Source of the DNA: a virus
Lineage: Duplodnaviria; Caudoviricetes
IMG/VR virus record: IMGVR_UViG_3300043391_000280
Coordinates: 1-36,382 of that record
DNA length: 36,382 bases
Reading direction: 5' to 3' (one strand)
Positions 4,561-36,354 of the stretch are shown here, piece by piece. The notes below the pieces were generated by a model that did no database searches, was not told the origin of the DNA, and worked only from the letters and a program-made list of their open reading frames with translations. Positions within the stretch are counted from its first letter, which is position 1. Each line of letters starts with the position of its first letter. The position numbers and the translations under genes were made by a program.

Positions 4561-4622
4561 CCGGCTCGCAGAGGAAAGGAAGGCGGCATGACGATAACAC
4601 TTACAGCAGAGGAGGCAGCATA

Positions 4623-5115: not shown

Positions 5116-5866
5116 ATGAGCGCCTTGATCTATCACGGCACCCCCATGACTCCCCGCGCTGCTCTTGAAGCCGTAGGACCGGGCCGAGCGTTCTGCGTTT
5201 CGTTTTTCCACCCGCAAGACGTGGAGGTAGTGCAGGCGATCAGTCCTGCTGTGATGTTTCGACAACGGCGCGTTTTCGGAATGGAAAGCCGCCATGAAAC
5301 GCGGCGAGGACTGGTTTATCCGCGAGGACTGGACGCCGTACTACCGCTGGCTGGAACCGCGCTTGTTCCATCCGGGTCGCTGGGCAGTGATCCCCGATGC
5401 GCCAGGTGCGCCGAGCCAGCTCAACGATTCACTCATTCCAGAATGGCCGTTTGGGCAGAAGGGCGCTCCGCTATGGCACATGGACGGGCCGATAGATCGG
5501 CTGCTCAGGCTTTGCGAGCGGTTCGACCGGGTATGCTTGGGATGGACCGGCAAGGGGAAGACACTGGACACGCCGGAATATCACACGCGCATGGAGGAAG
5601 TTGCCGCCGCTTTGGGCAACCAATGGCCGGTCTTGCACATGATGCGCGGGACGGCAGTTGCGCACCTTTACCCTTTCGAAAGCGCGGACAGCACCAGCCT
5701 TGCGCAGAACGGATGGCGATATGACACAGGATTTGACTTTGGCGACCGATGGGCTGGCCGGAGGGCCTATGCCGACGCCTTGACGCGCAGGAGCGCGCGT
5801 GGCGCGAGGACAACCGGAGCGACGCGCTGGACGAGGATCCAGGCAAGACGGAGGCCAACGCTGTAG
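5116..5866 (+). CDS. TGT-fold/DpdA-like DNA base-exchange protein split by a +1 frameshift at 5257-5262 (about 249 aa if joined)
   Basis: Frame 0 IYHGTP...CVSF...VMF joins +1 frame DNGAFSEW...IPD...LWHM...HMMRG...YPFESADSTS. Confidence 0.65.
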
Positions 5867-6132
5867 CCGTCATGGCGACCGATCCGTTCGAGGCGAGCGT
5901 TTTCTCCGACCCGCTTTTCCGGGATCGCGTGTATCTCGCGATTGACGACCTGCCACCGGAACAAAGCAGGACTATGCACCTCCTGCTGCTCGAATGGCCG
6001 ATCCATTCGAACGACCCAGCCGTCATGACGATCGCCAAGGCGCTGGGCTGCTCGGACCGGTCGGTTCGCAATCACCGGGCGCGGGCGCTCAAGACGCTTG
6101 CCGCCCTGTTCAATCTTGGGGACGACCAATGA
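5773..6132 (+). pseudogene. 5'-truncated sigma-70 region-4-like gene fragment
   Basis: AIDDLPPEQSRTMHLL...TIAKALGCSDRSVRNHRARALKTL; no credible start or region 2. Confidence 0.7.
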
Positions 6133-6470
6133 CCATCCGCCCTACGCCAACCGCCCTCGACGACGTGCTCGACCTCTTCCAAATGGAGGACGTCTACGAC
6201 GGCGAGGTTCTCGCCCGCTACGTGGAGGCGCATCCGCAGTTCGCGCTGCAGCTCATCGACCTGTCGAGGCTGCTGGCCACGCCCGAGGCCGACGACGAGG
6301 AGCCCATATCCGCTCTGGAAACGTCGCGCATCGACGCGGCCTGGATCGTCCACAAGGCCGCCGGACCGGAGCTTCCGAAGGGTGCCAACCCGCTCGACGC
6401 GCTCGTCGGCGAACGGGGCAAGGCGCTGGCGGCTACGAATGCGGCTGCGTGTTCTGGTATTCGTGATTGA
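6129..6470 (+). pseudogene. bacterial-type hypothetical protein downstream of the sigma-like fragment, probably 3'-truncated
   Basis: ATGA-coupled; strong C/G third-position bias until ~6432, then abrupt change. Confidence 0.55.
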
Positions 6471-6501
6471 TAAACGGGCGGGGTATCAATCATTTTTCCG
6501 C

Positions 6502-6530
6502 TTGCGCCCATTGTAGGATTATCCTATAAC
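6502..6530 (+). promoter_or_regulatory. sigma70-like promoter with palindromic operator (cassette 1)
   Basis: TTGCGC-N17-TATAAC; TTGTAGGAT-T-ATCCTATAA inverted repeat at 6511-6529. Confidence 0.7.
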
Positions 6531-6569
6531 CACACATGGGGATTGACCCCGCCGATAGGAGAATGTGAG

Positions 6570-6830
6570 ATGGACAAGGCAACCTTTTACAAGTCAATGA
6601 CAGACCACCAAATCAAGTGCAGCGGCACTAGCTGGTTTAGTTTGCCAGTTGTGCTTGAGGCTTCGGACAACAAATATATTTCCTATCCGTCTGTCGGTGT
6701 GATCCGGTTCGCTGAACAGGCAACCGACCTGAATATCACAAATGCTATTTTTCACCAGATGGCCTTTGACGGCCAGCTTGGAGCACCTGTGAGCGTCAAA
6801 AACCCGAAGTTCCGATATGACCCCCGCTGA
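6570..6830 (+). CDS. hypothetical protein, 86 aa (cassette 1 cargo)
   Basis: AGGAG RBS; visibly more AT-rich than flanks. Confidence 0.7.
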   Translation: MDKATFYKSMTDHQIKCSGTSWFSLPVVLEASDNKYISYPSVGVIRFAEQATDLNITNAIFHQMAFDGQLGAPVSVKNPKFRYDPR

Positions 6831-6999
6831 TCTCCGCGCAGCCCGTAAGACCATCGGCCTTTCCCAGCACGGATTGGCCGAGGTTTTGCGCATGGGCGCA
6901 TCAGGTTGGCAGTCGGTTGGTCGTTGGGAAAAGGACGGCAACACGATTCCCGGCCCCGTGCAAGTCGCTGTGCAATGCTTGCTTGAGCACGGGCGCTAA
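6817..6999 (+). CDS. small XRE-family HTH protein
   Basis: MTPADLRAARKTIGLSQHGLAEVL...VGRWEKDG..IPGP. Confidence 0.85.
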   Translation: MTPADLRAARKTIGLSQHGLAEVLRMGASGWQSVGRWEKDGNTIPGPVQVAVQCLLEHGR

Positions 7000-7087
7000 T
7001 CACCCATCCTCTCCGGCCCCATCCAGCACCGGCAATTCGCGCTCAAGCTGGCGCTGCGTTTCGTATTCATCGGCGGCGCGTTTGGCA

Positions 7088-7627
7088 TCAGCGCCGAGCC
7101 AGTGGAGCAAGGTGGTACTTCGCAACAAATTCTTCTGGGAGTTTGTTTCTTTTCCGCCGGTTGCATGGGGCGCAGGAGATAACGAGGTTTTCCAGTTCAT
7201 GTTTCCCGCCTTTTGAGATTGGTACAACGTGATCAATGTCGAATTTTTCTGCGCAATTGACGCCGCACCAGTGGCAAATCTTCGGTTGGCTTGAACCCCA
7301 TTGATAAAATTCGCTTGCCGTCAATGTGCAATTAGTAACACGGGTTTTACTGGCCTGATGGCGGCACCAAAGATTGTGCTTTTCTTTATTACGCTCTTGG
7401 TAAAGGCGCGCATTTTTAAGATACAATGCTCTGCGCTGCCGATAGTCCTCACGCCACGCAGCCTTGCGGGCCTCAGGGTCTGCGTTCCGTTTTGCTTTTT
7501 TGCGTTTGTTCATGCATTGCTTGCATTGCGTGCAAAGCCCGTGCGGCGCTCTAACGTCGCGGTAATAATCTGATGCAGCCTTATCTAGACCGCAGATCGT
7601 GCATAGCTTATGGTCAGCACATGCCAT
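7088..7627 (-). CDS. HNH endonuclease with N-terminal Zn-finger
   Basis: CTIC...CKQC; CHWC...IDHVVPISKGGKHELENLVISCAPCNRRK; AAGGAG RBS. Confidence 0.92.
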   Translation of the reverse strand: MACADHKLCTICGLDKAASDYYRDVRAPHGLCTQCKQCMNKRKKAKRNADPEARKAAWREDYRQRRALYLKNARLYQERNKEKHNLWCRHQASKTRVTNCTLTASEFYQWGSSQPKICHWCGVNCAEKFDIDHVVPISKGGKHELENLVISCAPCNRRKRNKLPEEFVAKYHLAPLARR

Positions 7628-7629
7628 TT

Positions 7630-7720
7630 GAACGCTCCTTGTTCGTGTGGTTAGGGCCGGGCGCTGTTGACGCAGCGTTTCCGGCCCGTTTCTTATAACA
7701 GATTCACTATTTGTTCGCAA
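7630..7720 (-). promoter_or_regulatory. HNH promoter and structured leader
   Basis: TTGCGA-N17-TATAAG; GGGCCGG/CCGGCCC hairpin at 7654-7687; GAAC-AAGGAGC-GTTC around the RBS. Confidence 0.65.
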
Positions 7721-7741
7721 CATTTGTCGCGTCGCGTGTGC

Positions 7742-8734
7742 TCATGCTGCTTCCTCCGCTACAACTTGGCCCCTGAAATACGCCTTGCCCCGGATCGCCT
7801 CGCATAGTTCAGGCGGCATCAATTCGCCGTCTTTGAACGTCAGCACCGCAAACCCGCTGCAAGCAGGCGAGGGCGCGTTCTCCTGATATTCAAACGCAGG
7901 CGCATTGAGATCGTGAATTGTGCCAGTCTGGACGCCCCAGCGCCGCCCGCGCCAATCGCCCCAAGGCTTAACCTCTAGGCTGTGCGTGTGACCAGTGACG
8001 ATATTCAACCCGCCTTTCATGGCGTTATTGTAAGCTGCATGAACGCCGTTCGCGTGCCGGTGCTTGATCATTGTCGGTGTGTGCGCGTCAGGATTGAACA
8101 GCGTAGACCATTGCAGTTCCCAGCCGGGAAAGTGATCCGCCAAGCGCATTCCTGACATATTGGCGAACTCTTTTGCCTGTACGGCTAATGTGCGTTCAAA
8201 CCGCAGGCAGTGGTTGCCGATGTTCCACAGCCGCTCGCAGCCACGTGGCAAGGCTTGTTCGATCTCGCCTACGCGCTCTTGGCAGGCATGAAGCTCGTCA
8301 ATGACCGTTGGCTTATGCGACCAGCCAAAGGGCGGATGGCGCGAGACGGAAATGCCGTCAAAGATGTCGCCATTCAAAACCTTGGCGCGCGGCTTGACCA
8401 GCTTGATCACCGCAAGCAGCGCCGTGTGTGCCAGCGTCGGCGGTCCCGGCCAATAGTGGTGATCGCTTGAGACAACCACTGTGCCGTTCGGAATCTGCAC
8501 CTGCAATTCACGCGGCCAAGTCCAACATTCTTCCGAACGCCATGTGGTCGGGGTGCGCGTTTCGTATCCAGCGCGGGGAACGGTTGTCAAGTGAATGCCC
8601 CGGTTGGCCATCCGCTTGCGCCGATCCAGAACATTGCGGACGTGTGCTCCGGTGGCTTCTGCTACGCCGGTTGCGCTGCCGTGTTTTTGCCACTCCTCGA
8701 TAAATTGCTCGTCCGTCATTTTTGGCGCTGGCAT
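7742..8734 (-). CDS. calcineurin-like metallophosphoesterase with N-terminal HTH
   Basis: SDHH, LNGDIFD, GNH, KH, GHTH motifs. Confidence 0.88.
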   Translation of the reverse strand: MPAPKMTDEQFIEEWQKHGSATGVAEATGAHVRNVLDRRKRMANRGIHLTTVPRAGYETRTPTTWRSEECWTWPRELQVQIPNGTVVVSSDHHYWPGPPTLAHTALLAVIKLVKPRAKVLNGDIFDGISVSRHPPFGWSHKPTVIDELHACQERVGEIEQALPRGCERLWNIGNHCLRFERTLAVQAKEFANMSGMRLADHFPGWELQWSTLFNPDAHTPTMIKHRHANGVHAAYNNAMKGGLNIVTGHTHSLEVKPWGDWRGRRWGVQTGTIHDLNAPAFEYQENAPSPACSGFAVLTFKDGELMPPELCEAIRGKAYFRGQVVAEEAA

Positions 8735-8797
8735 TTGGTATTCCTCTTGCCGTTGGTCCGGTTTACGAAATGCGCTGAAAGTGTAGTGACAATGTAG

Positions 8798-9304
8798 CTA
8801 CGGGCTAATTTTCAAACCAAGCGCCCACTCTCGGGCTGCCTCAAGGCGGGTCGTGTTGATCGTGCAGACCTGAATGTCGCCCGCCGTCACTGCAACCATG
8901 TCGGGCGCTGTACCGGCGCGGTCAGGACTTCCGGCGCGGTCACCTTCGGCGGAGGAAGGGGCTCTGCCGGCCGAACTCGCAAAGGTGCTGCGCACCCGGT
9001 GACCAGCGATGTAACGATCAGCAGCGGAACGAGCGTCAGCAAGCTCCGCACGGTAGGACTTGTCGGCTTCATTGGCTTTGCTCCTGTAGCGGGCCTCTGT
9101 GGCGTCCAGAGCGCGCTTGGCGATGATGGTGGCCTCGGACTGCGCAGCGGCGTAGGCGGCCCTGTCAGCCTTCCTAAGCGCCTTCTCGGCATGGTAGGCG
9201 TGGCGGTAGTGCCAACTGGCAACGATCAGCCCGAACACTGCCACAGCGGCGGCTATGGACAAGCCAAAGCGCCAGCGTGCGAGGATGGGAAGCAGGCCGA
9301 TCAT
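8798..9304 (-). CDS. Rz: i-spanin (Rz-like)
   Basis: N-terminal TM then Ala-rich coiled coil; after holin and endolysin. Confidence 0.85.
   Translation of the reverse strand: MIGLLPILARWRFGLSIAAAVAVFGLIVASWHYRHAYHAEKALRKADRAAYAAAQSEATIIAKRALDATEARYRSKANEADKSYRAELADARSAADRYIAGHRVRSTFASSAGRAPSSAEGDRAGSPDRAGTAPDMVAVTAGDIQVCTINTTRLEAAREWALGLKISP
8887..9072 (-). CDS. Rz1: o-spanin lipoprotein embedded in Rz
   Basis: Signal peptide with lipobox VTG-C, Pro-rich mature part, nested in another frame. Confidence 0.8.
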   Translation of the reverse strand: MKPTSPTVRSLLTLVPLLIVTSLVTGCAAPLRVRPAEPLPPPKVTAPEVLTAPVQRPTWLQ

Positions 9305-9522
9305 GCGGGCGGTTCCTGCTTGGTCGTGGTGACGCGCGCCATTGTCGCCAGTGCAAACACCGCAAAGCCGACAAGCGGACGCGCCCAAACCGGGAGCATC
9401 TCGACTAGCGCGGCAAAGCCTGCCGGATCAGACGCAGCCCAAGCGGCAATCAGGCCAGCAATCACCGCAAGGCGAACCGATGCAAAGCGCCACGCCTGAT
9501 TGATGTCGTCGATGAAGTTCAT
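9301..9522 (-). CDS. holin
   Basis: 73 aa, two TM segments, AWRFASVRL, between endolysin and Rz. Confidence 0.75.
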   Translation of the reverse strand: MNFIDDINQAWRFASVRLAVIAGLIAAWAASDPAGFAALVEMLPVWARPLVGFAVFALATMARVTTTKQEPPA

Positions 9523-9523
9523 G

Positions 9524-9616
9524 TCAGCCCCCTATGATGATGAGAATGCCGACCGTGATGAGCGCCAGATATGCGGCGCATTCTTTCACGGCCCGGATGA
9601 ATTGCGCGCGGGTCAT
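9524..9616 (-). CDS. small membrane peptide, 30 aa (MTRAQFIRAVKECAAYLALITVGILIIIGG)
   Basis: ATGA-coupled to endolysin; single TM. Confidence 0.5.
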   Translation of the reverse strand: MTRAQFIRAVKECAAYLALITVGILIIIGG

Positions 9617-10131
9617 TTCAGCAGCGCCAAAGCGGCGTCCTCGACCCGGCCCACACGGGCAAGCCAACCCTTGCCAAAGCGCCAGAATGTCGGCAGCGCG
9701 CGGTAGTAATCCCGGCGTGCATCGGCATAGGCTTCGATCAGCGTGTCGATGCCTTTCCGCATCGTGTAGGCCTGCACCGCTTCAAGCGTGCCGCGCCCGA
9801 TCTGCCCGTCAGGTAAAGCCGACACGATCTTTTGCAGCATCTTGGCCGCGCGTGCCGGCCCTGCGTTCACTGCGAAGTCGAACACCATGAGCCCGAGCCC
9901 ATCGCCTAGCTGGTCGCCCGCCACCTTGTCCCAATACCGGGACTTGTAGAGCGATGCGACGGCGACTTGCGTAAGCCCGCGCATGACGGCCTCAGTTGCG
10001 GGCCTGCCGGTGTATTCCGCCCAGGTCTTTGCCGTGACGCCAAGATTGGTCATGCCCCCCGGATCGTGCGGGTCATTCACGAAGCCGCCTTCCTCTTTGA
10101 TCAGGACGGCGAGGGCATCGGAGAATGCCAT
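9613..10131 (-). CDS. endolysin, glycoside hydrolase family 108 with peptidoglycan-binding domain
   Basis: EEGGFVNDPHDPGGMTNLGVT...FDFAVNAG...FGKGWLARV. Confidence 0.93.
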   Translation of the reverse strand: MAFSDALAVLIKEEGGFVNDPHDPGGMTNLGVTAKTWAEYTGRPATEAVMRGLTQVAVASLYKSRYWDKVAGDQLGDGLGLMVFDFAVNAGPARAAKMLQKIVSALPDGQIGRGTLEAVQAYTMRKGIDTLIEAYADARRDYYRALPTFWRFGKGWLARVGRVEDAALALLK

Positions 10132-10406
10132 CAGCGGTTACCTCTGCGTTCGCGCGCCTGTTCGGTCAGTGCCGCTACGTTGGCATCGATCCGCGCGCTG
10201 GTGATGCGGATTTCCTCAACCTTGGTCACAATCCGATCTTGCTGGACTTCAAGCCCACCAATCCGCCGGTCATGATCGTTCAAGCGTTGAACCTCGACAC
10301 CGGCAATGTAGGTGCCCTGCAATAGGGACAGCCCCAAAGCTGCCGCTGCGATCCATTCTGCACGGGTCAAGGCTCCCCCCTCTTTTGCTGGTTCAGAAAC
10401 TGCCAT
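10131..10406 (-). CDS. membrane/coiled-coil protein of lysis module (holin or antiholin-like)
   Basis: One TM then coiled coil; directly upstream of endolysin. Confidence 0.6.
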   Translation of the reverse strand: MAVSEPAKEGGALTRAEWIAAAALGLSLLQGTYIAGVEVQRLNDHDRRIGGLEVQQDRIVTKVEEIRITSARIDANVAALTEQARERRGNR

Positions 10407-12712
10407 CACCCGATCCGCCAGTTGGTGCCATCGGAATAAACTGGCACGCCATTAGCACCGCCGCCCGCGACCACGTTCCCAAAATTCCCCGCCGCAACCA
10501 CGTTGCTATCCGTGACAAACGCCCTTGATCCTGCACCTGCTGTTGCCGCAGCCGACAATGTGCCCACAGTCAGCGCGTGTGTGCGGGCATAGAATGTATG
10601 GACAATAGCCCATCGGCGGGCGGGTTCACCTGACAGATAGGTGTTGTCTACAAGTGGGCGGCTGTTGCAGCCCGTCTCAAAACTGGACGGCACGCCCGCA
10701 GACTGGTTTACGCCCCATGCAATCGCGGCGGTTCCGTCATCCTGAACTGTGCGAAAGGTTGTCGCTCCCGCGCTATTAATCAGGCTGACCTTGCGTGTAT
10801 CGGCAGCGCCGCTTGTCGAATATAGCGAGATCGATGGCGCAGAACCGGCAAACTGATAAACCGGCGCTTCAACACCCGCCTTCGATACAACGTCATAGAC
10901 TGGCCCCCAGCACCACGCCGCCGCGCTGGAACGCGAAAAGTCCCCTCGCACGTCATTGCCGTAATTGGCTGTCTTGAACTTTGACTGGATCGTGATGCCG
11001 TAGGTGTCATCGTCCAGAAGGCTTGGCTCTTTGTCCAGATAGACCGTCGGCGCGGTCGTGTACCCGCTACCACCTGCACCGACCGCAATCGTGACGCGCC
11101 CGTTTGTGAGGGTAGCCGTTGCCGTTGCGCCCGTTCCGCCGCCGCCCACAAGCCGGACAACCGGAGCAACTGAATAACCACCAATGGCCGCGGGCGCGCT
11201 GATGGACGTCACAGCGTCGGCGGTCAACGTTGCAACACAGCCGCCTGTGAACGTTGTCGGCGGATAATTAGTCTGCGCCGTGAGCTTGCGGACATACGCA
11301 TTTTGCCAGCGGATCATCGGCGTATTGCTTCCGTTAGTCAGTTTGATCACTGACCCCGGCATGGTGTTATTCGAGCCGCTGCTGATATGCGTTGCGCCGT
11401 CCAGAACGACGGTTGCGCCGATTGCAGGCGTGTTTATCACCAGTGCATTTGATTGGCTGATTGACGTAATCGCAAGCATGGTCTGGCTGGCATAGGTGCC
11501 GCCTACCGAAACCACCCAAGAATTAGCCGCGCCAGACGTGACAACGCCTAGGCTAGTGCCGTTCGCAGCAAACACCACATGGCCTACAGCAAGCGCAGGG
11601 CTTCCCGTAGTTGTCAGAGCAGTTCCCGTACATGACGCAGTAAACGAAATGCGCGGGCCAAACTGATAGTTGATGCCTGCTTCGGACTTCAGGTCGCGAA
11701 TGGACGTATGCCCGTCCAGCACAGGCGTATCGAGGTAAATAGCGCTGTCAACGCAGTGATCGGCGGCAAGTCCGTCAAACACCATGCCTTGAACGCCGTT
11801 GGTTACCCCCTTGAAGTACCAAGCAGGGCCGCCCGTATCCATGACCTTAACATCGGCAATACGGGTTTCCAGCGCGCCTTGGTTCATGCGCCCGCCACCG
11901 CTGGCAAAGTTCCGCAGCGTCACCCGGCGAACGGTCGTCTGTCCTTGCGGGCGAAGGTCCGAGCTTACAGCCGGATCATACCAGTTCATTGCCCAGCCAG
12001 AGGTCGAGGTAGACCCCTTACCGATAATCATCCAGTTATCCCACTGGCCGTAGTTCCAGTATTGTGAGCTACCGACGAGATGCCCCTGCATCCGTATACC
12101 GTCGATGTTGTCGGTTGAGACAGTGATGCGCGAGGCAAGGCGGTCCAAGGCTTCGGCATTACCCATGCCCTGCCAAGTCTGGCCCTCGTAATGCAGGAGC
12201 GTCGATGCGGTTGTGTAGTTAGCCGCACCAAGGTTTACTTGCGCGCGAACCGATGCCGTCCCGTCCGTCAGGCTGGCCGCATAAGTCGCCGCCTGTTGCA
12301 GCGTGCCGTAGCTGTTAGCCCGCACATCATCATCAAGGACGCCGTCGACCGTATCAGCAACCGCGCCTGTGCCGGGGGCAGTGTAGCCGATCAGCGCCGC
12401 GCCATCATTGGCAAGGTCAGCAAAAGTTACAAAGCTGCTGACGTTCAAAACGTTAATAACAACACGGCCCTGCTTATTCAAAACCGTCAATGAGAATGTA
12501 GCAGGCGAAGCGTAAATGCGTGATTGCGCACCCTGATAAGCCGGATACCCGTCAACCGTGCGGATCGGCTGCGCCCACGGCAAGGTAAGCGCGGCATCGC
12601 GGTAGACCGTGATGGGGTTAGTGCGCGCGTCCTGATTGGCTGCGCCCACGTAGATGTAGCCGCCAGTGCCAGCTTCGGGGAAGTACGGGAAGGGGTTGGT
12701 TATGCTGGTCAT
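10406..12712 (-). CDS. tailspike / receptor-binding protein
   Basis: P22 head-binding-like N-terminus (GYIYVGAANQDARTNPITVY...QPIRT), beta-helix-like body. Confidence 0.85.
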   Translation of the reverse strand: MTSITNPFPYFPEAGTGGYIYVGAANQDARTNPITVYRDAALTLPWAQPIRTVDGYPAYQGAQSRIYASPATFSLTVLNKQGRVVINVLNVSSFVTFADLANDGAALIGYTAPGTGAVADTVDGVLDDDVRANSYGTLQQAATYAASLTDGTASVRAQVNLGAANYTTASTLLHYEGQTWQGMGNAEALDRLASRITVSTDNIDGIRMQGHLVGSSQYWNYGQWDNWMIIGKGSTSTSGWAMNWYDPAVSSDLRPQGQTTVRRVTLRNFASGGGRMNQGALETRIADVKVMDTGGPAWYFKGVTNGVQGMVFDGLAADHCVDSAIYLDTPVLDGHTSIRDLKSEAGINYQFGPRISFTASCTGTALTTTGSPALAVGHVVFAANGTSLGVVTSGAANSWVVSVGGTYASQTMLAITSISQSNALVINTPAIGATVVLDGATHISSGSNNTMPGSVIKLTNGSNTPMIRWQNAYVRKLTAQTNYPPTTFTGGCVATLTADAVTSISAPAAIGGYSVAPVVRLVGGGGTGATATATLTNGRVTIAVGAGGSGYTTAPTVYLDKEPSLLDDDTYGITIQSKFKTANYGNDVRGDFSRSSAAAWCWGPVYDVVSKAGVEAPVYQFAGSAPSISLYSTSGAADTRKVSLINSAGATTFRTVQDDGTAAIAWGVNQSAGVPSSFETGCNSRPLVDNTYLSGEPARRWAIVHTFYARTHALTVGTLSAAATAGAGSRAFVTDSNVVAAGNFGNVVAGGGANGVPVYSDGTNWRIG

Positions 12713-15168
12713 TGTTCTTCCTTGGAAGCATTGATAGCAGCGATGAAACGCTTAACGAGAGGCGCTTCCTCTTGAGGCTTGGCCTTGCTCAATTGCAGAA
12801 GGATGTTGCGAGCGGCGCGGCTTTCCATGACGCGGGCAAGGCCACCGATAGCGCCCGCAGCTGCAACCGTAGCCGCCACAGTTGTCCCGCCGGTAGCAGC
12901 CCCGCCAAGCAAGCCGCCAACCATACCAGTGAGGCCGCTAAGGCCAGCAATCGCCACGCCCTGCTGCCCGGTGTTAGTCACCACACCAGCTTCACCCGCA
13001 CGGCGCGTAAGCTTGAGCGCCTTGACAAGGCCCCCGATACGCTGCGCCTCTTCCGGCGAAAACAGTACGCCGATAGCGTTGCCCTGCTTTTTGACAGCGG
13101 TGATGAACTTTTCAGGGCTGATCACCTCCATATCGCCGCCAATTTCTCGGAACACCTTATCCATGACAGCCGCGCGAGCATTGGCGCGGCCTTCAGGTGT
13201 AAGGGCACGATAAAGCGCCGCAACGTCGCTGCGCTTCTGGCTAAACAACAGGTTGTTAACTGCTTCCGGCGTTGCCTCGCCATTGCGAAGAACGGACTTC
13301 AGCGCCTGCTTGTCCAAGTCGCCCGCCAATTCCGAAAGACGGCGATTGGCAATCATCCACTTGTTCGCCTCGCGCGAGCCGCCATTGGCGCGAATGAAAG
13401 CGCCCATATCCTCGCGGAGCGGGTTATAGATGCGGTTCATGCTCTTTTGCGCTTCACCGCTTACCGCTGCCAATTCGGGAGACTTGAACTCTTCCCCGAT
13501 CTGCTTGCGAAGGACTTCAATATCCTTAAGGCTCTTGCCCTGAATATCGTTCTTCCAGCGCCGAAGAATTGAAATTGCGGGCGCAAAGCCTTTCGGGCTG
13601 ATACGCGAAAGCCGCGCAAGCTCGTCATCAATCGCGGCATTCGTGGCAGCGACCGGAACCTCGCCCGCGCTATTGACCGCTGCGATAGCCTGCTTTTTCA
13701 TATCGGCGTACTTGGTCAATTCGCCGCTGCGCTTAGTCGAGACACTGCGCCAAACCTTATCAGGTAAGCCTTCAGCGCCAGCGCCATAGCCCGTTAGAAC
13801 ATCCTTGACCGCTGCAACGCGCGCGTCCTGCTGCGTTGCGCGAAGCCCGCCCGTGCCCGCCAGAGGAATGCGCTCGCCAACCTGCTGCAGGTTCTTGCCC
13901 ATGAACGTCTGCGGCGGCGCAACGTCCGAAGCCATAACCGGGATGCCAGCGCCTTCAGCCGCTGCAACAGCCGCCGGAGCCGCTACGCGCGGTGCCTTCA
14001 TGGCTTGCGCTACACCAGCGCCCTTTGCGCCTGCAATGCCCCCGGCAAGCCCTGCGGCAATCTGTGCCACCGTGCCGCCGCCCTGCTCACGGGCAAACTC
14101 TGCACCCGCGCCAGCACCAGCACCGCCCGCAACCTGCTGGATAGGCTGCGCAGCCAAACTAGCCGCTGCCTGCCCTGCCATGCCGGGAAGAACGCGAGAA
14201 GCCATGCCAGCAAGGCCAGCGCCAGTCATTGCGCCGGTTGCGCCCTGAATGATGGCATTGCCCATTGGATCGGTGTTTTCAGGCAGGCCCAGCGCCTCGC
14301 GTGTGGCGCGCCCGAGATTGGTAGAAAAGTTTGTGCCAGCCAGCGCATTGATCGTGGCATTCAGCGGATTGCCGATAATGCCCAGAACATTGCCAGCGCC
14401 TTCAGCCATTGAGCCAAGGCCCTGCCCGATGCCTTCCATCGTCGTATTTGACTGCGGAAGTTCTGCGGTCGTTTGCCCCTTGGTAAAGGTCTTTCCGCCG
14501 TAGGTAAACGTATTGCCTTCAGCCTGCGCCTGCGTTTGCGCAATCTCTTGCGTGATCTGGCTCGGAACTTTGCCGTCAACCATTCCGCCAATCAGCATTT
14601 CAAGCAGCGAAAGCTTTTCCTTGATGGCAATATCGCTATCAGATGCCTGCGGAATGTAGGCCATAAAGACCATCATTTCCTTTTCGCTGTCGCCTTCTTT
14701 AGCGGTCTGTGCGACAAGCGGGCGAATGAGCGGGAGCATCGTCTGCGCTGCCACATTAAAGCGCTCATTTGTTGGCAGTGCGCTGAAATATTCAGTCAAT
14801 CCGCCAAGTCGTTCAAGCGGCTGGCCTTCAATATCCTGCTGGAACAAATCAGCCGTGCGCCCCATGATGGCGCGGATCGTATCGGCGCGCTTTTTAGATG
14901 ACGCTTCCTTGGAAGCAATTTCGATTTCAGTTGCGCTCTTTCCTTCACCGCCGCGACGAGCCGATGCTTGTGCTGCAATCACTTCAGGATCAGCAGGGCC
15001 ACCCGGAATAGGCGCAAGTCCGCCACCTGCCTGCTCAAAACCACTAGGCGGCTCTTTCGGCTTTTCAGGCGCGGGCGGAACATAGATAGCGCTGCCAGAC
15101 GTAGGCGCGGCCTGCGCCGGGTCTGCTACCACCGGGCTATCTGCCCACCAATCTTTAGTCTGTGCCAT
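12709..15168 (-). CDS. large DNA ejection/transfer protein (P22 gp16-like position)
   Basis: 819 aa, Ala/Gly-rich helical with hydrophobic segments; third gene of the ejection cluster. Confidence 0.72.
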   Translation of the reverse strand: MAQTKDWWADSPVVADPAQAAPTSGSAIYVPPAPEKPKEPPSGFEQAGGGLAPIPGGPADPEVIAAQASARRGGEGKSATEIEIASKEASSKKRADTIRAIMGRTADLFQQDIEGQPLERLGGLTEYFSALPTNERFNVAAQTMLPLIRPLVAQTAKEGDSEKEMMVFMAYIPQASDSDIAIKEKLSLLEMLIGGMVDGKVPSQITQEIAQTQAQAEGNTFTYGGKTFTKGQTTAELPQSNTTMEGIGQGLGSMAEGAGNVLGIIGNPLNATINALAGTNFSTNLGRATREALGLPENTDPMGNAIIQGATGAMTGAGLAGMASRVLPGMAGQAAASLAAQPIQQVAGGAGAGAGAEFAREQGGGTVAQIAAGLAGGIAGAKGAGVAQAMKAPRVAAPAAVAAAEGAGIPVMASDVAPPQTFMGKNLQQVGERIPLAGTGGLRATQQDARVAAVKDVLTGYGAGAEGLPDKVWRSVSTKRSGELTKYADMKKQAIAAVNSAGEVPVAATNAAIDDELARLSRISPKGFAPAISILRRWKNDIQGKSLKDIEVLRKQIGEEFKSPELAAVSGEAQKSMNRIYNPLREDMGAFIRANGGSREANKWMIANRRLSELAGDLDKQALKSVLRNGEATPEAVNNLLFSQKRSDVAALYRALTPEGRANARAAVMDKVFREIGGDMEVISPEKFITAVKKQGNAIGVLFSPEEAQRIGGLVKALKLTRRAGEAGVVTNTGQQGVAIAGLSGLTGMVGGLLGGAATGGTTVAATVAAAGAIGGLARVMESRAARNILLQLSKAKPQEEAPLVKRFIAAINASKEEQ

Positions 15169-15401
15169 TAGCCCTTAGGCTCCATGTGAATATGATCGCC
15201 CTCGTTAATCACATCGAGGCCGGGATTAAGACGGCGAAGCTGTGCAGCGTAGGCGCTCATGCTCATCCCCGGAGGCGGTACGCTGTCACGCGCGCGGCCA
15301 GACAGGTGATAGCTGTTCGCCACCCCGCCTACTGCCTTGTTTCGTGCTGGACTGCGCATTGTCGAAGTCACTCGCTCACCTTCAATACCCTTAGGGGCGA
15401 A
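15168..15401 (-). CDS. peptidase M15 (DD-peptidase fold)-like domain, probably a +1 frameshift extension of the upstream ejection protein
   Basis: VTSTMRSPARNKAVGGVANSYHLSGRARD...GDHIH metal motif; no convincing own start; overlaps TTT CGC CCC TAA. Confidence 0.7.
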   Translation of the reverse strand, partial: FAPKGIEGERVTSTMRSPARNKAVGGVANSYHLSGRARDSVPPPGMSMSAYAAQLRRLNPGLDVINEGDHIHMEPKG

Positions 15402-16257
15402 ACCCGCCGGTAGCGTTGCCGCTACCACCTCCCGGTTTTGTGCGGATAACACCATTGGGATCGTAAAACGCCGCTCCCGGCGGCAATGCGTCAAACTCGG
15501 CCTTGTTCTTTGGTCTGGCAGGACCACCGCGCTGCGCATTGGCCGGAATGCTTCCGCCCATCATTTGCCGCAATTGCTCTGCCGGGCCGCTAAAGAATCC
15601 GCCATTAGGAAGCGTGACCGTTACTTTTGTCCGCTCTTCCTTGAGTGCCTGCTTGAACTCCGGCGTGCCGACCGCCTGCGGCCCCATTTCAGCCACAAGG
15701 TTCTTAATCAAAGCCGTGTCAAGCTTCATGTCTTGGCTGGCATACATCGTCTTGTAGCGCTCGGGATCAAGCGTGAAGATCGTGTTTGCCAGCGCAACCT
15801 TGGCTTCCTCCGGACTGCGCTGCATTAGCTCAAGGCCAAACTGTAGCTCCTTGGCGTACTGCTCTTGCCCCGGCGTGTTCTTGGCTGCGGCCAGAAGCCC
15901 TTCGGCAATCTTCTGCGCCGAACCCGTATCTCCACGTTCAAGCGCTGAATAGACTTGCGTCGAGTAATTCAGGCGAGTCTGCTTGATCGCGTCATTGATC
16001 GGCTCGTATGCCTTCTTAATGGCGTCCGCCTGCTCGGGAAACTGTAGCATGAACTCGGACATAGTTTCTGGCGAGCGGTCAGTCTTAAGCCGCTGTACAA
16101 ACTGCGCATATTGCTGCTTACGCTGCTCTTGCGCAACCTGCTTTTGCATGGCCTGCTCTTGTGCCAAACGCTGCTGCCGTGCCGCCTGAAACGACTGCAT
16201 AAACGCCTGCCCCGGATCGGGCATAGCTTGCAGGAAGGGAAGGGGATTGATTGCCAT
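15391..16257 (-). CDS. DNA ejection protein (P22 gp20-like position)
   Basis: Gln/Ala-rich helical; C-terminal EFDALPPGAAFYDPNG module. Confidence 0.72.
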   Translation of the reverse strand: MAINPLPFLQAMPDPGQAFMQSFQAARQQRLAQEQAMQKQVAQEQRKQQYAQFVQRLKTDRSPETMSEFMLQFPEQADAIKKAYEPINDAIKQTRLNYSTQVYSALERGDTGSAQKIAEGLLAAAKNTPGQEQYAKELQFGLELMQRSPEEAKVALANTIFTLDPERYKTMYASQDMKLDTALIKNLVAEMGPQAVGTPEFKQALKEERTKVTVTLPNGGFFSGPAEQLRQMMGGSIPANAQRGGPARPKNKAEFDALPPGAAFYDPNGVIRTKPGGGSGNATGGFRP

Positions 16258-17207
16258 TAGAACGTGACCTGCTTGCCGGAAAGGTCAAAAGTGCCACTGC
16301 CATAGCCCGTTATAAGACCGGGCATCGGGGGCAACCCAACACCGATGGGACTGCCTTGCAGACTTGCCAGCGCGCTATTGGAATTGATAAGCTGCCCGTT
16401 AAGCAAGGGCGGGCCACCGCTTCCACCCAAAGCCCCGCCAAGGATGTTCCCAAGGCTCGCAAGTCCCCCGCCAAGCGCAGCACTGGAGCCAAGCGCGCCA
16501 TAGCCTCGCGCCTGTCCAGTGTCCTGCAATAGCGCGCCGACATTTCGGCCAGTTTCCATGCCAGCAGTACCAACGCCTGCCGCCGCATTCTGGCCCAGCC
16601 TTGAGATGCCGCCTAGTGTCTCAAGCTGCTGCTGGATTTGCTGGTTAAGCAATGCGGGGCGAAACTGCGCCAATGCCCCCTGCACGTTTCCGCCACGCAG
16701 CCCGCCGGTTGCGCTCGCGTTCTGGAGGATACCCTCCTCACCCTGCCGCGCGAGAGCCTGAAACATCGGGCTTTGCTCAAACTGGCTGATAGCCTGGCGC
16801 TGCGCCTGCGCCCCGCCGGTCTGGAACTTAGCTAGATCGGCGCGCGGGTCGTTGCGCTGCTGCCACTGCTGCGCGAACGTCGCCAAGTCCTGCATACCGC
16901 CGCCGTAGGGATTGATGCGCTGCGCGTTAAACGCCTGCATGAGCGCCGGATTAGACTGCGCGTAGGCTTGCCAGTTGGTCTGCTGCGGTGCTGCCCCTGC
17001 CAGCGCGAGAAGTTGCGAGAATGCCCCCGTGCCGCCTTGTGCGTAAGGCGCGAGAAGCTGCTGCACCCGATCAAACTGGCGGCGCTGCTCCTCAATGGCC
17101 TGCGCATTGCTCTCGGCTTGCGCATTCGCTGCGGACTTCGCGCCGCCGGAAGCAATCAATCCCCCGCCGATTGTTGCCGCAGCGGCAATAAGTGTGCCTA
17201 CAGCCAT
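16257..17207 (-). CDS. DNA ejection/pilot protein (P22 gp7-like)
   Basis: Gly/Ala N-terminus, EQRRQFD...LAPYAQGG, NASATGGLRGGN signature. Confidence 0.82.
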   Translation of the reverse strand: MAVGTLIAAAATIGGGLIASGGAKSAANAQAESNAQAIEEQRRQFDRVQQLLAPYAQGGTGAFSQLLALAGAAPQQTNWQAYAQSNPALMQAFNAQRINPYGGGMQDLATFAQQWQQRNDPRADLAKFQTGGAQAQRQAISQFEQSPMFQALARQGEEGILQNASATGGLRGGNVQGALAQFRPALLNQQIQQQLETLGGISRLGQNAAAGVGTAGMETGRNVGALLQDTGQARGYGALGSSAALGGGLASLGNILGGALGGSGGPPLLNGQLINSNSALASLQGSPIGVGLPPMPGLITGYGSGTFDLSGKQVTF

Positions 17208-23780: not shown

Positions 23781-24641
23781 TCATGTGGCAGCGCTATCGC
23801 ACCAAGCGCCACACTCACTGTCGGCGGCGTCGGCATCAATCTCGCCCATCGGCAACAAAGGGCTGGACCGGGCGATGCGGAGGACTTCGGCAAAGCTCTG
23901 ATATCCAAATGTGAAATTCTTCGCCCGCTCATGCGCTGCCCAATACTCAGTCCCTGCCGGATCGCGCCGGGCGCGGGTAATACGGGTCTTGAGTTGCAGG
24001 AACGGGCAATGATCGCAATTCCCGGTGCCTCGCTCCAATTGAAGGTCGAACGGCATGGAGCCCCAATAAGCCAGCACGTCGGCCTTTCGGACGCCATCGG
24101 CGGCCAGCGGGAAGGCAAAAAGCCTTGCAAGATTGCGAGGCTTGCGCGGCAGTTCATATACCCGGTCGTATTCGTCGGCGCGGAACCCGATGACTTCGGT
24201 ATACTCGCCAAGCTTGTAGCCTTGCGCCTCCATGAAATCATGCAGCACACCGACCTTGCAGCGTTCGGTGCACCACCGACCAGTGATCGTCGAAAAGAGT
24301 GCCTGTTTCCGGGCTATCAGGCGGTCCAGCGGTTCCCCGGCCCGGCTCGCGCTGTTGTAGCCGACTTCCTCAAAGCGCCCCGCCGCACCAACGCTTCGCA
24401 GGTCGGTAACGAACTCCAACCAGTGAATGCGGACGTTCCACTTGGTCGCGCATTCGTGAACGAACCGCAGCGTTTCCTCGCGCTCTTTCCCGGTGTTGGC
24501 AAAGCCGACATAGATATTGTCGGGAAGCGCGCCCCCATGAGCGTCGATGATACGCTTGAGCATCTTGCCGCTGGTGCGCCCGCCAGAGAACGAAATCATC
24601 GCGGGCCCTTCAACGAGGTAGGGGTTTCTAACCACGGGCAT
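23781..24641 (-). CDS. PAPS-reductase-family (PP-loop) protein, cassette passenger
   Basis: ISFSGGRTSG, FANTGKEREETL, RWCTERCK, IGFRADE, GNCDHCPF, ECGAWC. Confidence 0.87.
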   Translation of the reverse strand: MPVVRNPYLVEGPAMISFSGGRTSGKMLKRIIDAHGGALPDNIYVGFANTGKEREETLRFVHECATKWNVRIHWLEFVTDLRSVGAAGRFEEVGYNSASRAGEPLDRLIARKQALFSTITGRWCTERCKVGVLHDFMEAQGYKLGEYTEVIGFRADEYDRVYELPRKPRNLARLFAFPLAADGVRKADVLAYWGSMPFDLQLERGTGNCDHCPFLQLKTRITRARRDPAGTEYWAAHERAKNFTFGYQSFAEVLRIARSSPLLPMGEIDADAADSECGAWCDSAAT

Positions 24642-31200: not shown

Positions 31201-31543
31201 CAATCACCCGGCGAGTGATTAGGTTAACTGCAATGTCATCGCCATCCTTGCCGGTATGCTCGTTGCGGACGGTTTCCTTCCAGCCCATCTGCGTCTTGGC
31301 ATAGAAGATGGCTGCGGTCATGTTGCCGTTAAGCGCGGCCTTAACGATGGCACCGCCAACCTTAGCCTTGGCTTCCGCAGCGCCAGCGTCCAAGTCCTCG
31401 CGGCACCGTTCCGCCAAGGTGTCAACGCACTTACCGATCAGCGTAGCGATCTGCTCCTGGGTGATGCCGAGACCAGCATACATGCGAATGCGCTTGCGCT
31501 CTTCCTCGGTGGGATTCCAAGGCTGTGGCCCGCGCTTACCCAC
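31184..31543 (-). CDS. terS: terminase small subunit
   Basis: GTG start; GITQEQIATLIG HTH, AAIFYAKTQMGWKE, EHTGKDG; directly upstream of terL. Confidence 0.82.
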   Translation of the reverse strand: MGKRGPQPWNPTEEERKRIRMYAGLGITQEQIATLIGKCVDTLAERCREDLDAGAAEAKAKVGGAIVKAALNGNMTAAIFYAKTQMGWKETVRNEHTGKDGDDIAVNLITRRVIDAPEG

Positions 31544-32807
31544 CGACCAGTTCCCGCTCGGCCATCTGCGCGAAGGTCTTGCCGGTCTCTGCGTGCGTTG
31601 CCTCTTGCCCGGTGAAATCCTGCCAGCGCTTGATGGTGACATCGACATAGGCCGGGTTCAGTTCGATCGCGTGAATGGAGCGGCCGGTCATTTCCCCGGC
31701 AATGATGGTGGTGCCTGAGCCTGAAAACGGCTCATAGACCGCCTGGCCGGGGCTGGAATTGTTCTCGATCGGGCGCTTCATGCACTCAACCGGCTTCTGC
31801 GTGCTGTGGCCGGTTTCGTTCTCGTTCTTCTTGGGCTTGGGAATGTGCCAGATCGTAGTCTGCTTCCGGTCGCCGGCCCAGTGGCCCTTTGCGCCCTTTT
31901 TGACGGCGTACCAGCAAGACTCATGTTCCCAGTGGTAGTCGCCGCGCGAGAGCACGAACTGGCCCTTGTCCCAGATGATCTGGGAACGCACATGAAAGTC
32001 GCAGGCAGCCAAGCTTTCGCCAACAACACACGCAAATAGTCCGGCGTGCCAGACATAAGCCACATCGCCGGGGAACAGCGCCCAAGCCTCAGCCCAATCG
32101 GCGCGGTCGTCGTTCTCAACCTTCCCAATGGCTCGGCCATTGGAGGCCAAGCCATCCGACCGCATCGCCTTGTTCCGCCAGTCTGCATCATACTCCACCC
32201 CATAAGGCGGATCAGTCACCATCAAATGCGGCGTCACCCCGTTCAGGCACTTCGCCACGCAATCCGCGTCGGTGCTATCCCCGCACACGATCCGGTGCTT
32301 GCCCAGCAACCACACATCACCCAGCACGCTCACCGGGTCGGTGGGCACCTCGGGAATGTCGTCGGGATCGGTCAGGCCCTCGGTCTTGTCCGCAAGCAGC
32401 GCCGCAAGTTCGTCATCGCTGAACCCAAGCAGCGCCAGGTCGAACCCGTCAGCGCCAAGCCCCTCAATCTCGCTGGACAGCAAATCCATGTCCCAGCCAG
32501 CGTTAAGCGCCAGCTTGTTGTCGGCGATAACATAGGCGCGCTTCTGAGCGTCTGTCAGGCCGTTCAGCGGTATCGTCGGCACTTCGGTAAGGCCAAGCTT
32601 ACGAGCGGCCTGTAAGCGCCCGTGTCCGGCAATGATGCCATTACCGCCATCTGTCAGGATCGGGTTAGTGAATCCAAACTCGCGGATGGACGCTGCGATC
32701 TGCGCAACCTGTGCGTCGGAATGAGTGCGGCTGTTGCGTGCAAAAGGAATGAGCGCCGCAACTTCACGGATCTCGACTTTTATATTCCCGATAGTTTTAT
32801 CCGCCAT
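31536..32807 (-). CDS. ParB-N domain fused N4/N6 DNA methyltransferase
   Basis: NSRTHSDAQ...IIAGHGR...IADNKL; TDPPY, HSTQKP, EPFSGSGTT. Confidence 0.93.
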   Translation of the reverse strand: MADKTIGNIKVEIREVAALIPFARNSRTHSDAQVAQIAASIREFGFTNPILTDGGNGIIAGHGRLQAARKLGLTEVPTIPLNGLTDAQKRAYVIADNKLALNAGWDMDLLSSEIEGLGADGFDLALLGFSDDELAALLADKTEGLTDPDDIPEVPTDPVSVLGDVWLLGKHRIVCGDSTDADCVAKCLNGVTPHLMVTDPPYGVEYDADWRNKAMRSDGLASNGRAIGKVENDDRADWAEAWALFPGDVAYVWHAGLFACVVGESLAACDFHVRSQIIWDKGQFVLSRGDYHWEHESCWYAVKKGAKGHWAGDRKQTTIWHIPKPKKNENETGHSTQKPVECMKRPIENNSSPGQAVYEPFSGSGTTIIAGEMTGRSIHAIELNPAYVDVTIKRWQDFTGQEATHAETGKTFAQMAERELVGG

Positions 32808-35740: not shown

Positions 35741-36354
35741 GCGCCCTCCACAAACCGCGCCACAAGCGCGCGCATCTCGGCATCAGCCGCAATCTCAAAA
35801 CGCTGACACAAGCTGCGCACGGTGGTGTGATCGCGCCCGCCAAACCGACGCGCGACGTCGGCCATGCTGTTGCCGCGCAGAACCAAAATGGTCTGCGCAA
35901 CCATGCGCGGAACCATGTATTTACGCAGGCGGCACTTGCCTGTCAGATCGTCCTCTGTGACGCCGTAAAGTCTTGCCACCGCCGCAATGATATCCGCAGC
36001 GGTCAATGCTTTTGTTTTGCACGGTGGGGGCAGTGCTGGCGCTGTGGCAGCTGCTTCCAACGCTGCCTTCTGTGCCGCGCGTCTTTCGCGTCTAAGTGAC
36101 CGCTCAGATCGGGGGCGGATGGGCGATGCTTCCGCAATCGCCGCCGCTTCCTCGCGTTCAAACCGCGCTTTAACGTCCGTAATCTCGGCGCGAAACGACG
36201 CGCGGATTCGATCAACTGTCGCGCGGTCAATGCCGTGATGCGGCCCATATTCGCGGCGCAACTGTGCCAGCACAAACCCGGTGTCACTATGGCGCTTGGC
36301 GAGCGTGGCGACGTATGTGCGCGGATAGCCCAGCGGGTGATTATTAAAATTCAT
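35737..36354 (-). CDS. protein with DnaA domain IV-like HTH
   Basis: IIAAVARLYGVTEDDLTGKCR...PRMVA...SMADVARRFGGRDHTTV. Confidence 0.85.
   Translation of the reverse strand: MNFNNHPLGYPRTYVATLAKRHSDTGFVLAQLRREYGPHHGIDRATVDRIRASFRAEITDVKARFEREEAAAIAEASPIRPRSERSLRRERRAAQKAALEAAATAPALPPPCKTKALTAADIIAAVARLYGVTEDDLTGKCRLRKYMVPRMVAQTILVLRGNSMADVARRFGGRDHTTVRSLCQRFEIAADAEMRALVARFVEGA

Follow-up and report, generated by a model that had tools for sequence, protein, structure and literature searches.

The window analysed here, positions 1 to 36,382 of the IMG/VR virus record IMGVR_UViG_3300043391_000280 (Duplodnaviria; Caudoviricetes), spans a complete virus record of 36.4 kb, in which the portal, terminase, coat, head-closure and ejection genes are P22-like. 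Two unrelated genes on its opposite strands, a TGT-like gene (site 1) and a gp20-like ejection gene (site 2), carry the same elements in the same order: a Shine-Dalgarno (SD) sequence GGAGG, an adjoining hairpin, a spacer of 5 nucleotides (nt), and an in-frame UUU-C at a conserved +1 frame break. The four parts reported by the first-pass annotation of the window are present in both genes as placed there; the arrangement is referred to below as the cassette.

At site 1, on the plus strand, the zero-frame N-terminal part starts with the ATG at 5116 and ends in the UUU shift codon, which is codon 48 of the open reading frame (ORF) (5116..5259). The internal GGAGG (5223..5227) is followed by a hairpin region (5228..5251), a 5-nt spacer (5252-5256) and the shift site TTTC (5257..5260). 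The core stem of the hairpin (5232-5249) has 5 pairs and folds at -7.1 kcal/mol alone and -8.3 in context, while the lower stem has two registers among homologs. The +1 frame (5258..5866), closed in the window by a stop two codons upstream of the shift site, contributes 201 further codons, so that the predicted shifted product has 249 amino acids (aa). The zero frame continues without stops over 5260..5724 and gives an unshifted product of 202 aa. The body encoded in the +1 frame matches PHROG 887, 'queuine tRNA-ribosyltransferase'-like (E 4.7e-29), and on this match we consider the product a putative TGT/DpdA-like enzyme; it had no Pfam, NCBIfam or PDB sequence match, and a partial model gave weak matches to TIM barrels (best E 8.7e-3).

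Classification of 186 members of the site-1 family (185 loci and the window) yielded 48 distinct +1-broken sequences, 71 distinct in-frame homologs, where the N- and C-terminal parts form one ORF, 59 duplicates and 8 unusable loci. The break falls at ATG-UUU-CGA in 47 of the 48 broken homologs, with identity down to 54%. In all 47, GGAGG ends exactly 29 nt before the UUU, as compared with 3/71 in-frame homologs and 0.21 expected under synonymous codon resampling; the codon preceding Glu encodes seven different amino acids among the broken homologs, its third base being always G. The codon after UUU is CGN in 47/47, a constraint imposed by the +1-frame Asp codon. Purifying selection acts on both sides of the break (pN<pS in 45/45 for the N-terminal part and 46/46 for the +1 frame). 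In the 48th broken gene (L005) the SD and the stop-free frame are retained, the break lies three codons further upstream and the spacer to UUU-U is again 5 nt; the hairpin is shorter and weak (-3.1), the sequence is nested in the broken clade, and, being one sequence, it could represent an error in the T run. In a quick tree, which cannot separate gain from loss or recombination, there were 6 state changes, at least 4 of them forced by well-supported branches. Some in-frame members (L011/L321 and L412) have an apparent second break within the C-terminal part.

The region between SD and UUU folds at a mean of -10.6 kcal/mol in the 47 broken homologs vs -4.5 in the 56 in-frame homologs with identity of at least 50%. 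Relative to synonymous resampling, the mean z-score was -2.07 in the former (44/47 below zero) and -0.16 in the latter (30/56). The hairpin of site 1 is thus supported energetically, less firmly than that of site 2 described below.

Downstream of the UUU, the zero frame is free of stops for about 145 codons in 44/47 broken vs 2/56 in-frame homologs. T before AA, AG or GA occurs at 18/1388 positions in the stop-free zero frame of broken genes vs 1002/5377 elsewhere, with no depletion in the in-frame genes (280/1550 vs 1266/6504). Since the protein of this frame is poorly conserved (median 40% vs 72%), we suggest that most ribosomes do not shift at site 1 and that the open zero frame keeps the mRNA covered; a weakly constrained second protein may also be made from it. 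Two members, L004 and L419, keep the cassette and have early zero-frame stops; L004 has 16, which makes it a natural control for the idea of polarity discussed below.

At site 2, on the minus strand, an ejection protein of 288 aa (unshifted) is encoded at the position of P22 gp20 (15391..16257), between a P22_gp7 match and a DNA transfer protein. The internal GGAGG (15428..15432) is abutted by a hairpin of 8 pairs with a GNRA (GCAA) loop (15408..15427; -13.3), and a 5-nt spacer (15407-15403) separates the latter from the shift site TTTC (15399..15402). The TTT is codon 286 of ORF 16257-15391, and a stop occurs two codons later. The 77-codon +1 frame (15168..15401) encodes a Peptidase_M15_3 domain (32.2 bits, cut-off 23.2) under purifying selection (pN<pS 23/23), and the stop of the predicted 362-aa fusion overlaps the ATG of the next gene.

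The set of loci obtained by protein similarity, some of them near duplicates, contained 59 members, 53 of which had the M15 domain at 49% or more: 27 with the cassette (one with AGGAGA as the SD), 22 in-frame fusions and 4 other. A scan of the collection with SD, loop, distances, TTTC and one base pair fixed produced 95 matches, 85 of them distinct. All 44 matches with +1 geometry were paired at 6 or 7 of 7 free positions, and only 2 of the 41 matches without it (a 44/0/2/39 table). Energy and geometry together gave 63 distinct site-2 instances; among the 56 of the 25-nt class 95.8% of cells were paired, a figure which, unlike the above table, is partly circular, and changes on both sides of the stem were seen at 8/8 pairs (103 cells). 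The site-2 hairpin is real, and with these compensatory changes the hairpin claimed by the first-pass annotation holds at site 2, while at site 1 the case is energetic and less firm. In the 57 instances situated off contig edges the stem begins 0-2 nt after GGAGG, the hairpin is 16-21 nt long, and the distance from stem to UUU is 5 nt in 53, 6 in 3, and 4 in 1; the next gene starts no more than 7 nt from the +1 stop in 54/57. The codon following UUU is CGN in 28/63 instances, another CNN in 34 and UGA in one (L050), and UUU-U variants occur, so UUU_CGN, initially proposed as the motif, had to be abandoned.

Among the +1 products scanned (25 of 61), 7 had M15_3 and 10 SLT domains, and 8 had no assignment, one type of the latter resembling an epsilon15 protein annotated as lytic transglycosylase. 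Judging from these domains, the +1 frame of site 2 adds interchangeable candidate wall hydrolases (M15, SLT). A further site-2 cassette is found at L603, with a +1 product which we take to be an M23 peptidase from a motif. One record (G031) contains two different ejection genes with the cassette, L471 and L211, at 885 and 37724, and is possibly a chimeric contig.

The cassette is also present in a cultured phage, Pam1, with UUU-U at the end of gp14, the counterpart of the site-2 gene, annotated as injectosome translocase. The +1 frame there has 103 codons, of which the last 49 alone are annotated. In Sphingopyxis phage VSN-002 the same type of domain is fused in frame, with no cassette. No cassette signal was found in Pam5, nor where the ejection genes lie in PfAn1, Firinga, Xfas53 and two Manatee Spring records. 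Pam1 and Pam5 are recorded as cyanophages; the ejection module of Pam1 resembles those of sphingomonad phages, and Pam5 (L513) encodes GcrA. An alphaproteobacterial host in the Pam1/Pam5 culture is a possibility, at present speculative. Pam5 also has an in-frame site-1 homolog near a VUT-family gene.

The two sites thus share one anatomy. The distance from GGAGG to UUU is 29 nt at site 1 and 25 nt at site 2 (given earlier as 28 and 24 nt, with the following U counted), too long for the prfB mode, as the first-pass annotation had stated, and ranges across families from 22 to 29 nt. The hairpin varies in length (about 15-24 nt, 5-9 pairs in natural cases), while its flanks are constant, 0-2 nt 5' of the stem and 4-6 nt 3' of it, for a total cassette length of 31-38 nt. 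The slip site is UUU-C/U, with UUU always the Phe codon of the zero frame and a pyrimidine directly 3' of it; a sense codon occupies the A site in 62/63 site-2 and 47/47 site-1 cases. Both cassettes occur together in two other records (G056 and G071). An intrinsic terminator was ruled out at these sites: the spacer is 5 nt, mostly G/C, only 3-4 U are present, the elements lie inside ORFs, and true terminators look different.

GGAGG...TTTCG matches occur three times in the window; the third, at 4611, was rejected, as it lacks a hairpin (-3.0) and precedes an ATG. A descriptor consisting of GGAGG, a hairpin of -7.4 or lower and TTTY had exactly two matches in the window, sites 1 and 2. Markov simulations of the window, with no condition on reading frame, gave on average 0.25-0.29 matches, and two or more in 3-4 of 100 runs; therefore homologs had to decide, and it is conservation, not the count, that carries the case. 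Both breaks are conserved, the position of the SD being constant at each, and, as had been argued, are not independent chance indels.

The occurrence of the cassette in other gene families was examined in two family-blind scans, with SD, stem base and TTTCG fixed, covering 22 and 6 of 64 parts. The +1 geometry was found in 12/49 hairpin-positive vs 2/166 other matches, so that the enrichment at +1 overlaps proposed as a check by the first-pass annotation is seen here as well as in the site-2 table. The 12 comprise 8 site-2 members, two genes lying between tail and tape-measure-position genes (L759 and L760), a portal gene (L762) and one terminator-like false match. In a relative of L760, MW202444, retrieved by protein search alone (33% identity), a 7-pair hairpin with another sequence directly adjoins GGAGG and is followed by 5 nt and UUU-C. 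L759, L760 and MW202444 constitute a third family; we take them to be tail assembly chaperones from gene position and motifs known to us, and a PHROGs search gave no match for the genes at this position. No cultured relative of the L759 chaperone was found, and the L760 query had no match in three genomes. Two other candidates for the third family were rejected: in L692 the real ORF lies in the zero frame, and L607 has a terminator before a separate gene. In L762 (3878-6275), a single sequence, the portal gene carries the cassette and a 167-codon +1 extension with no PHROG match.

A looser layout was seen in a baseplate-hub gene (L761) and in 4/6 of its cultured relatives, the Streptomyces phages BRock, LuckySocke, GiJojo and pSt2308: the hairpin lies 5-7 nt before UUU-C, and an SD-like stretch 6-8 nt before the stem. 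It may stem from coding for a Glu-Val pair and was not counted as the cassette. Near 1383-1400 in the loci L764-L767 of cultured Streptomyces phages, the baseplate-hub gene has UUU-C at its end, followed by an unannotated +1 frame of 75-80 codons.

Beyond these cases the searches were negative. A family-blind scan for cUUCGg loops (6/64 parts; about 1500 stretches exist) gave +1 geometry in 0/112 distinct matches, many of them terminators. The descriptor passed 78 times over 2.29 Mb of flanks, 37 times at site 1 and 26 at site 2, none of the 15 others having +1 geometry. Over 82 whole viral records the pattern revealed no further family, two candidates proving false when checked. A GNRA pattern was run over 401 genomes of the family of G084, rows being judged by eye and 30 loci retrieved; paired matches with the geometry were all of the site-2 type (two were retrieved, and G088 was judged from its row alone). 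No cassette was found in host genes of the genomes searched. A conserved chromosomal GGAGG...TTTC (L489 and similar loci in many genomes), in a gene presumably encoding a topoisomerase-I-like protein, was rejected, since the UUU is out of frame and the fold weak. The cassette is sparse, not ubiquitous. Of the 'general' signal originally suggested, the spread across gene families stands with the third family, while generality in the sense of frequency does not, none being found outside the two families in the flanks.

Taken together, both sites are probably programmed +1 ribosomal frameshifts stimulated by SD and hairpin as a composite signal, one that is reused by phage genes of unrelated kinds. 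The overlap geometry is conserved, the zero frame offers a P-site codon that can re-pair, both frames are under coding selection, and relatives have in-frame fusions. In all likelihood, a minority of ribosomes shift when the tRNA-Phe in the P site leaves UUU and pairs with UUC (or UUU) instead, re-pairing at UUU-Y being the only route that fits all instances; UUU_Y is described as +1-prone in passages of PMC5009743. As to the stimulator, we lean slightly towards a model in which SD anchoring and refolding of the hairpin at the mRNA exit push the ribosome forward. The SD would pair with the 16S tail and hold the ribosome; the hairpin, refolding as it leaves the mRNA exit, would align with the SD helix; and, its last pairs closing with UUU in the P site, the mRNA would be drawn out by one base and the ribosome moved forward. 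The first-pass annotation had proposed that folding restores the prfB geometry, which is not borne out: folding leaves 4-6 nt 3' and 0-2 nt 5' of the stem, which differs from the <4 nt of prfB, and because of this the push would have to come from elsewhere. In passages of the cited sources, a 5' hairpin stimulates +1 shifting on 70S ribosomes (PMC6321510), SD pairing persists across 19-21 nt (bioRxiv 2020.04.16.045807), and at initiation the gap between SD and P site can be spanned by a hairpin (PMC3014915). At site 2 the outcome would be the 288-aa ejection protein and a minor 362-aa form with a wall-cutting tail; at site 1, a low level of the 249-aa TGT-like enzyme, most ribosomes continuing in the stop-free zero frame, which would likely avoid polarity in an early operon.

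Several observations weigh against this interpretation. The pairing of the site-1 hairpin in fixed registers reaches 75% or 64% of cells for the two alternatives, several members fold at only -4 to -6, and part of the hairpin is dictated by conserved amino acids. Site 1 is missed by the site-2 covariance model R1, whose power on whole genomes is low. The third family amounts to three sequences in all, and, the homologs being interrelated, p-values overstate their independence. In one locus (L039, 9930-10020), counted above among the 4 other M15 loci, the M15 domain follows a C-CCU-UUC heptamer and GGAGG in -1 geometry; the locus has either changed over to a -1 shift or been misassembled. A distant SD with an unstructured long spacer leads to back-slippage, not forward movement, in passages of bioRxiv 2020.04.16.045807. 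Finally, the supplement of PMC9382816 lists Pam1 gp14 as positive by mass spectrometry and leaves ORF15, the last 49 codons of the +1 frame, blank; this counts against shifting weakly, given a minor target of 49 residues.

Among the alternatives, programmed ribosomal shifts driven by one upstream element per site (the SD alone at site 1, the hairpin alone or mainly at site 2), with no common mechanism, are unlikely. The weak hairpins and two registers of site 1 and the failure of R1 to find it would fit such an arrangement, as would the hub-chaperone genes, in which hairpin and UUU-C are kept and 6-8 nt separate the stem from an SD-like stretch, and a hairpin alone works in vitro in passages of PMC6321510. 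However, both sites have an invariant SD, whose codon frame differs between them; we know of no +1 effect of an SD 29 nt away without a fold; and L005 and the 22-, 25-, 26- and 28-nt classes keep both flanking distances. Realignment of RNA polymerase, by which a nascent hairpin would leave some transcripts one base short at the T run, is improbable. Such hairpin-dependent realignment is known on T5C5 (passages of PMC5009743), but the run here is just 3-4 T with variable flanks, it is always a zero-frame Phe codon followed by a pyrimidine, and an invariant SD would be meaningless to the polymerase. RNA contigs in sequencing runs span neither site; one contig, which may be the source, spans site 1 without differences, and an independent DNA run has holes at both sites.

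A split ribosome-binding site of the type of T4 genes 38 and 25, starting a separate +1-frame protein, has the same layout of SD, hairpin and short spacer, but is slightly less probable still, as no start codon is conserved in the +1 frame (none lies within -14..+7 codons in 30/47 site-1 and 8/63 site-2 instances, and those in the rest are scattered), and relatives encode both parts as one in-frame protein. That the genes are dead or misassembled and the motif incidental is barely credible: the records are mostly metagenomic assemblies and the site-1 gene is dispensable, but the same break recurs in 47 distinct sequences down to 54% identity, with purifying selection on both sides, compensatory pairs, a zero frame purged of stops and a cultured phage among the carriers. 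Just as negligible is entry into the +1 frame by a -2 slip or by a hop over the hairpin of the T4 gene 60 type. Gly codons do flank the site-2 hairpin in many members, but the bases 5' of UUU vary and offer no re-pairing for tRNA-Phe, there are no conserved matched take-off and landing codons, and no stop lies in the hairpin.

The composite SD-hairpin cassette resembles the programmed frameshift of prfB (release factor 2, RF2) in that a bacterial ribosome meets an internal SD 5' of a P-site codon where re-pairing moves the frame on by one base. Unlike in prfB, with its SD less than 4 nt from CUU and UGA in the A site, the SD of the cassette lies 22-29 nt off across a hairpin, the codon is UUU, and a stop occupies the A site in 1/63 site-2 (L050) and 0/47 site-1 instances. 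A hairpin just 5' of the shift site, with about 60% of the SD effect on 70S ribosomes, was reported by Huang, Cho and Chang (2018; passages of PMC6321510). According to these passages, that hairpin is engineered, has 12 pairs, replaces the SD at CUU-UGA and works only without RF2, whereas the cassette is natural, has 5-9 pairs, stands in tandem with the SD and acts on sense codons. In T4 genes 38 and 25 a hairpin likewise shortens the distance from SD to P site, from 22 to 5 nt and from 27 to 11 nt (passages of PMC3014915); there it serves initiation at AUG, whereas the codon of the cassette is an internal UUU and the outcome would be a change of frame.

Re-pairing of tRNA-Phe from UUU to UUC is also reported for Yersinia YopN-TyeA and influenza PA-X (UUU_Y and UCC_UUU_CGU), in passages that give no SD-hairpin stimulator; in contrast to UUU_CGN of PA-X and amalgaviruses, CGN is not required in the cassette (28/63 at site 2). 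The third family shares its gene position and the logic of short and long products with the tail assembly chaperones G/GT, but its three members use +1 behind SD and hairpin, and canonical G/GT mostly -1 at a heptamer. The training cases of a prediction tool were 2368 backward and 350 forward (passages of PMC10885494). Full-text searches, including the accessible parts of PMC5009743, PMC3711429, PMC10885494, PMC9382816 and PMC4631060, returned no description of the cassette; the supplementary cluster tables of PMC3711429 may bear on this point.

The site-2 gene is flanked on the minus strand by a gp7-like ejection gene (16257..17207; PF25688, phrog_598) and a gp16-like DNA transfer gene (12709..15168; phrog_770, P22-like DNA transfer proteins). 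Since relatives of site 2 occur in a Sphingopyxis metagenome-assembled genome and in genomes belonging to the same family as a Novosphingobium genome, the host of the phage is probably a sphingomonad. Besides the TGT-like gene, the window contains a PAPS-reductase-like gene (23781-24641) and two DNA methyltransferase genes (554-1495 and 31536-32807), and these four may form one DNA-modification set. Positions 44-100 recur at 36283-36339, so that at least 57 bases are common to the left and right ends; bases 1-20 form an inverted repeat with part of this stretch, and the record has no exact terminal repeat. Rfam gave 0 matches at gathering score in the window.

To our knowledge, bacterial +1 frameshifting has essentially one well-understood stimulator, that of prfB. 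On the present comparisons, the cassette is real and conserved and very probably programmed, a variant of SD-stimulated +1 frameshifting. According to a recent prediction tool, a general forward motif is not known (passages of PMC10885494). The cassette comes with covariation and spacer controls supplied by nature, and with Pam1 as a carrier in culture, and makes it directly testable in what way a structured RNA at the mRNA exit, along with SD pairing, drives the ribosome forward. It predicts unannotated wall-hydrolase tails on ejection proteins of podophages, and represents a searchable rule for correcting phage annotations. A broader view, on which we are evenly divided, is that an SD helix stacked on a refolding hairpin would constitute a distinct, portable class of 5' stimulators forcing +1 shifts on sense codons, with no stop or starved codon. 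Ejection, DNA-modification, tail-chaperone, portal and hub-chaperone genes would each have been given it independently by phages across several host phyla, as a means of setting protein ratios, and many missed gene extensions would be marked by it.

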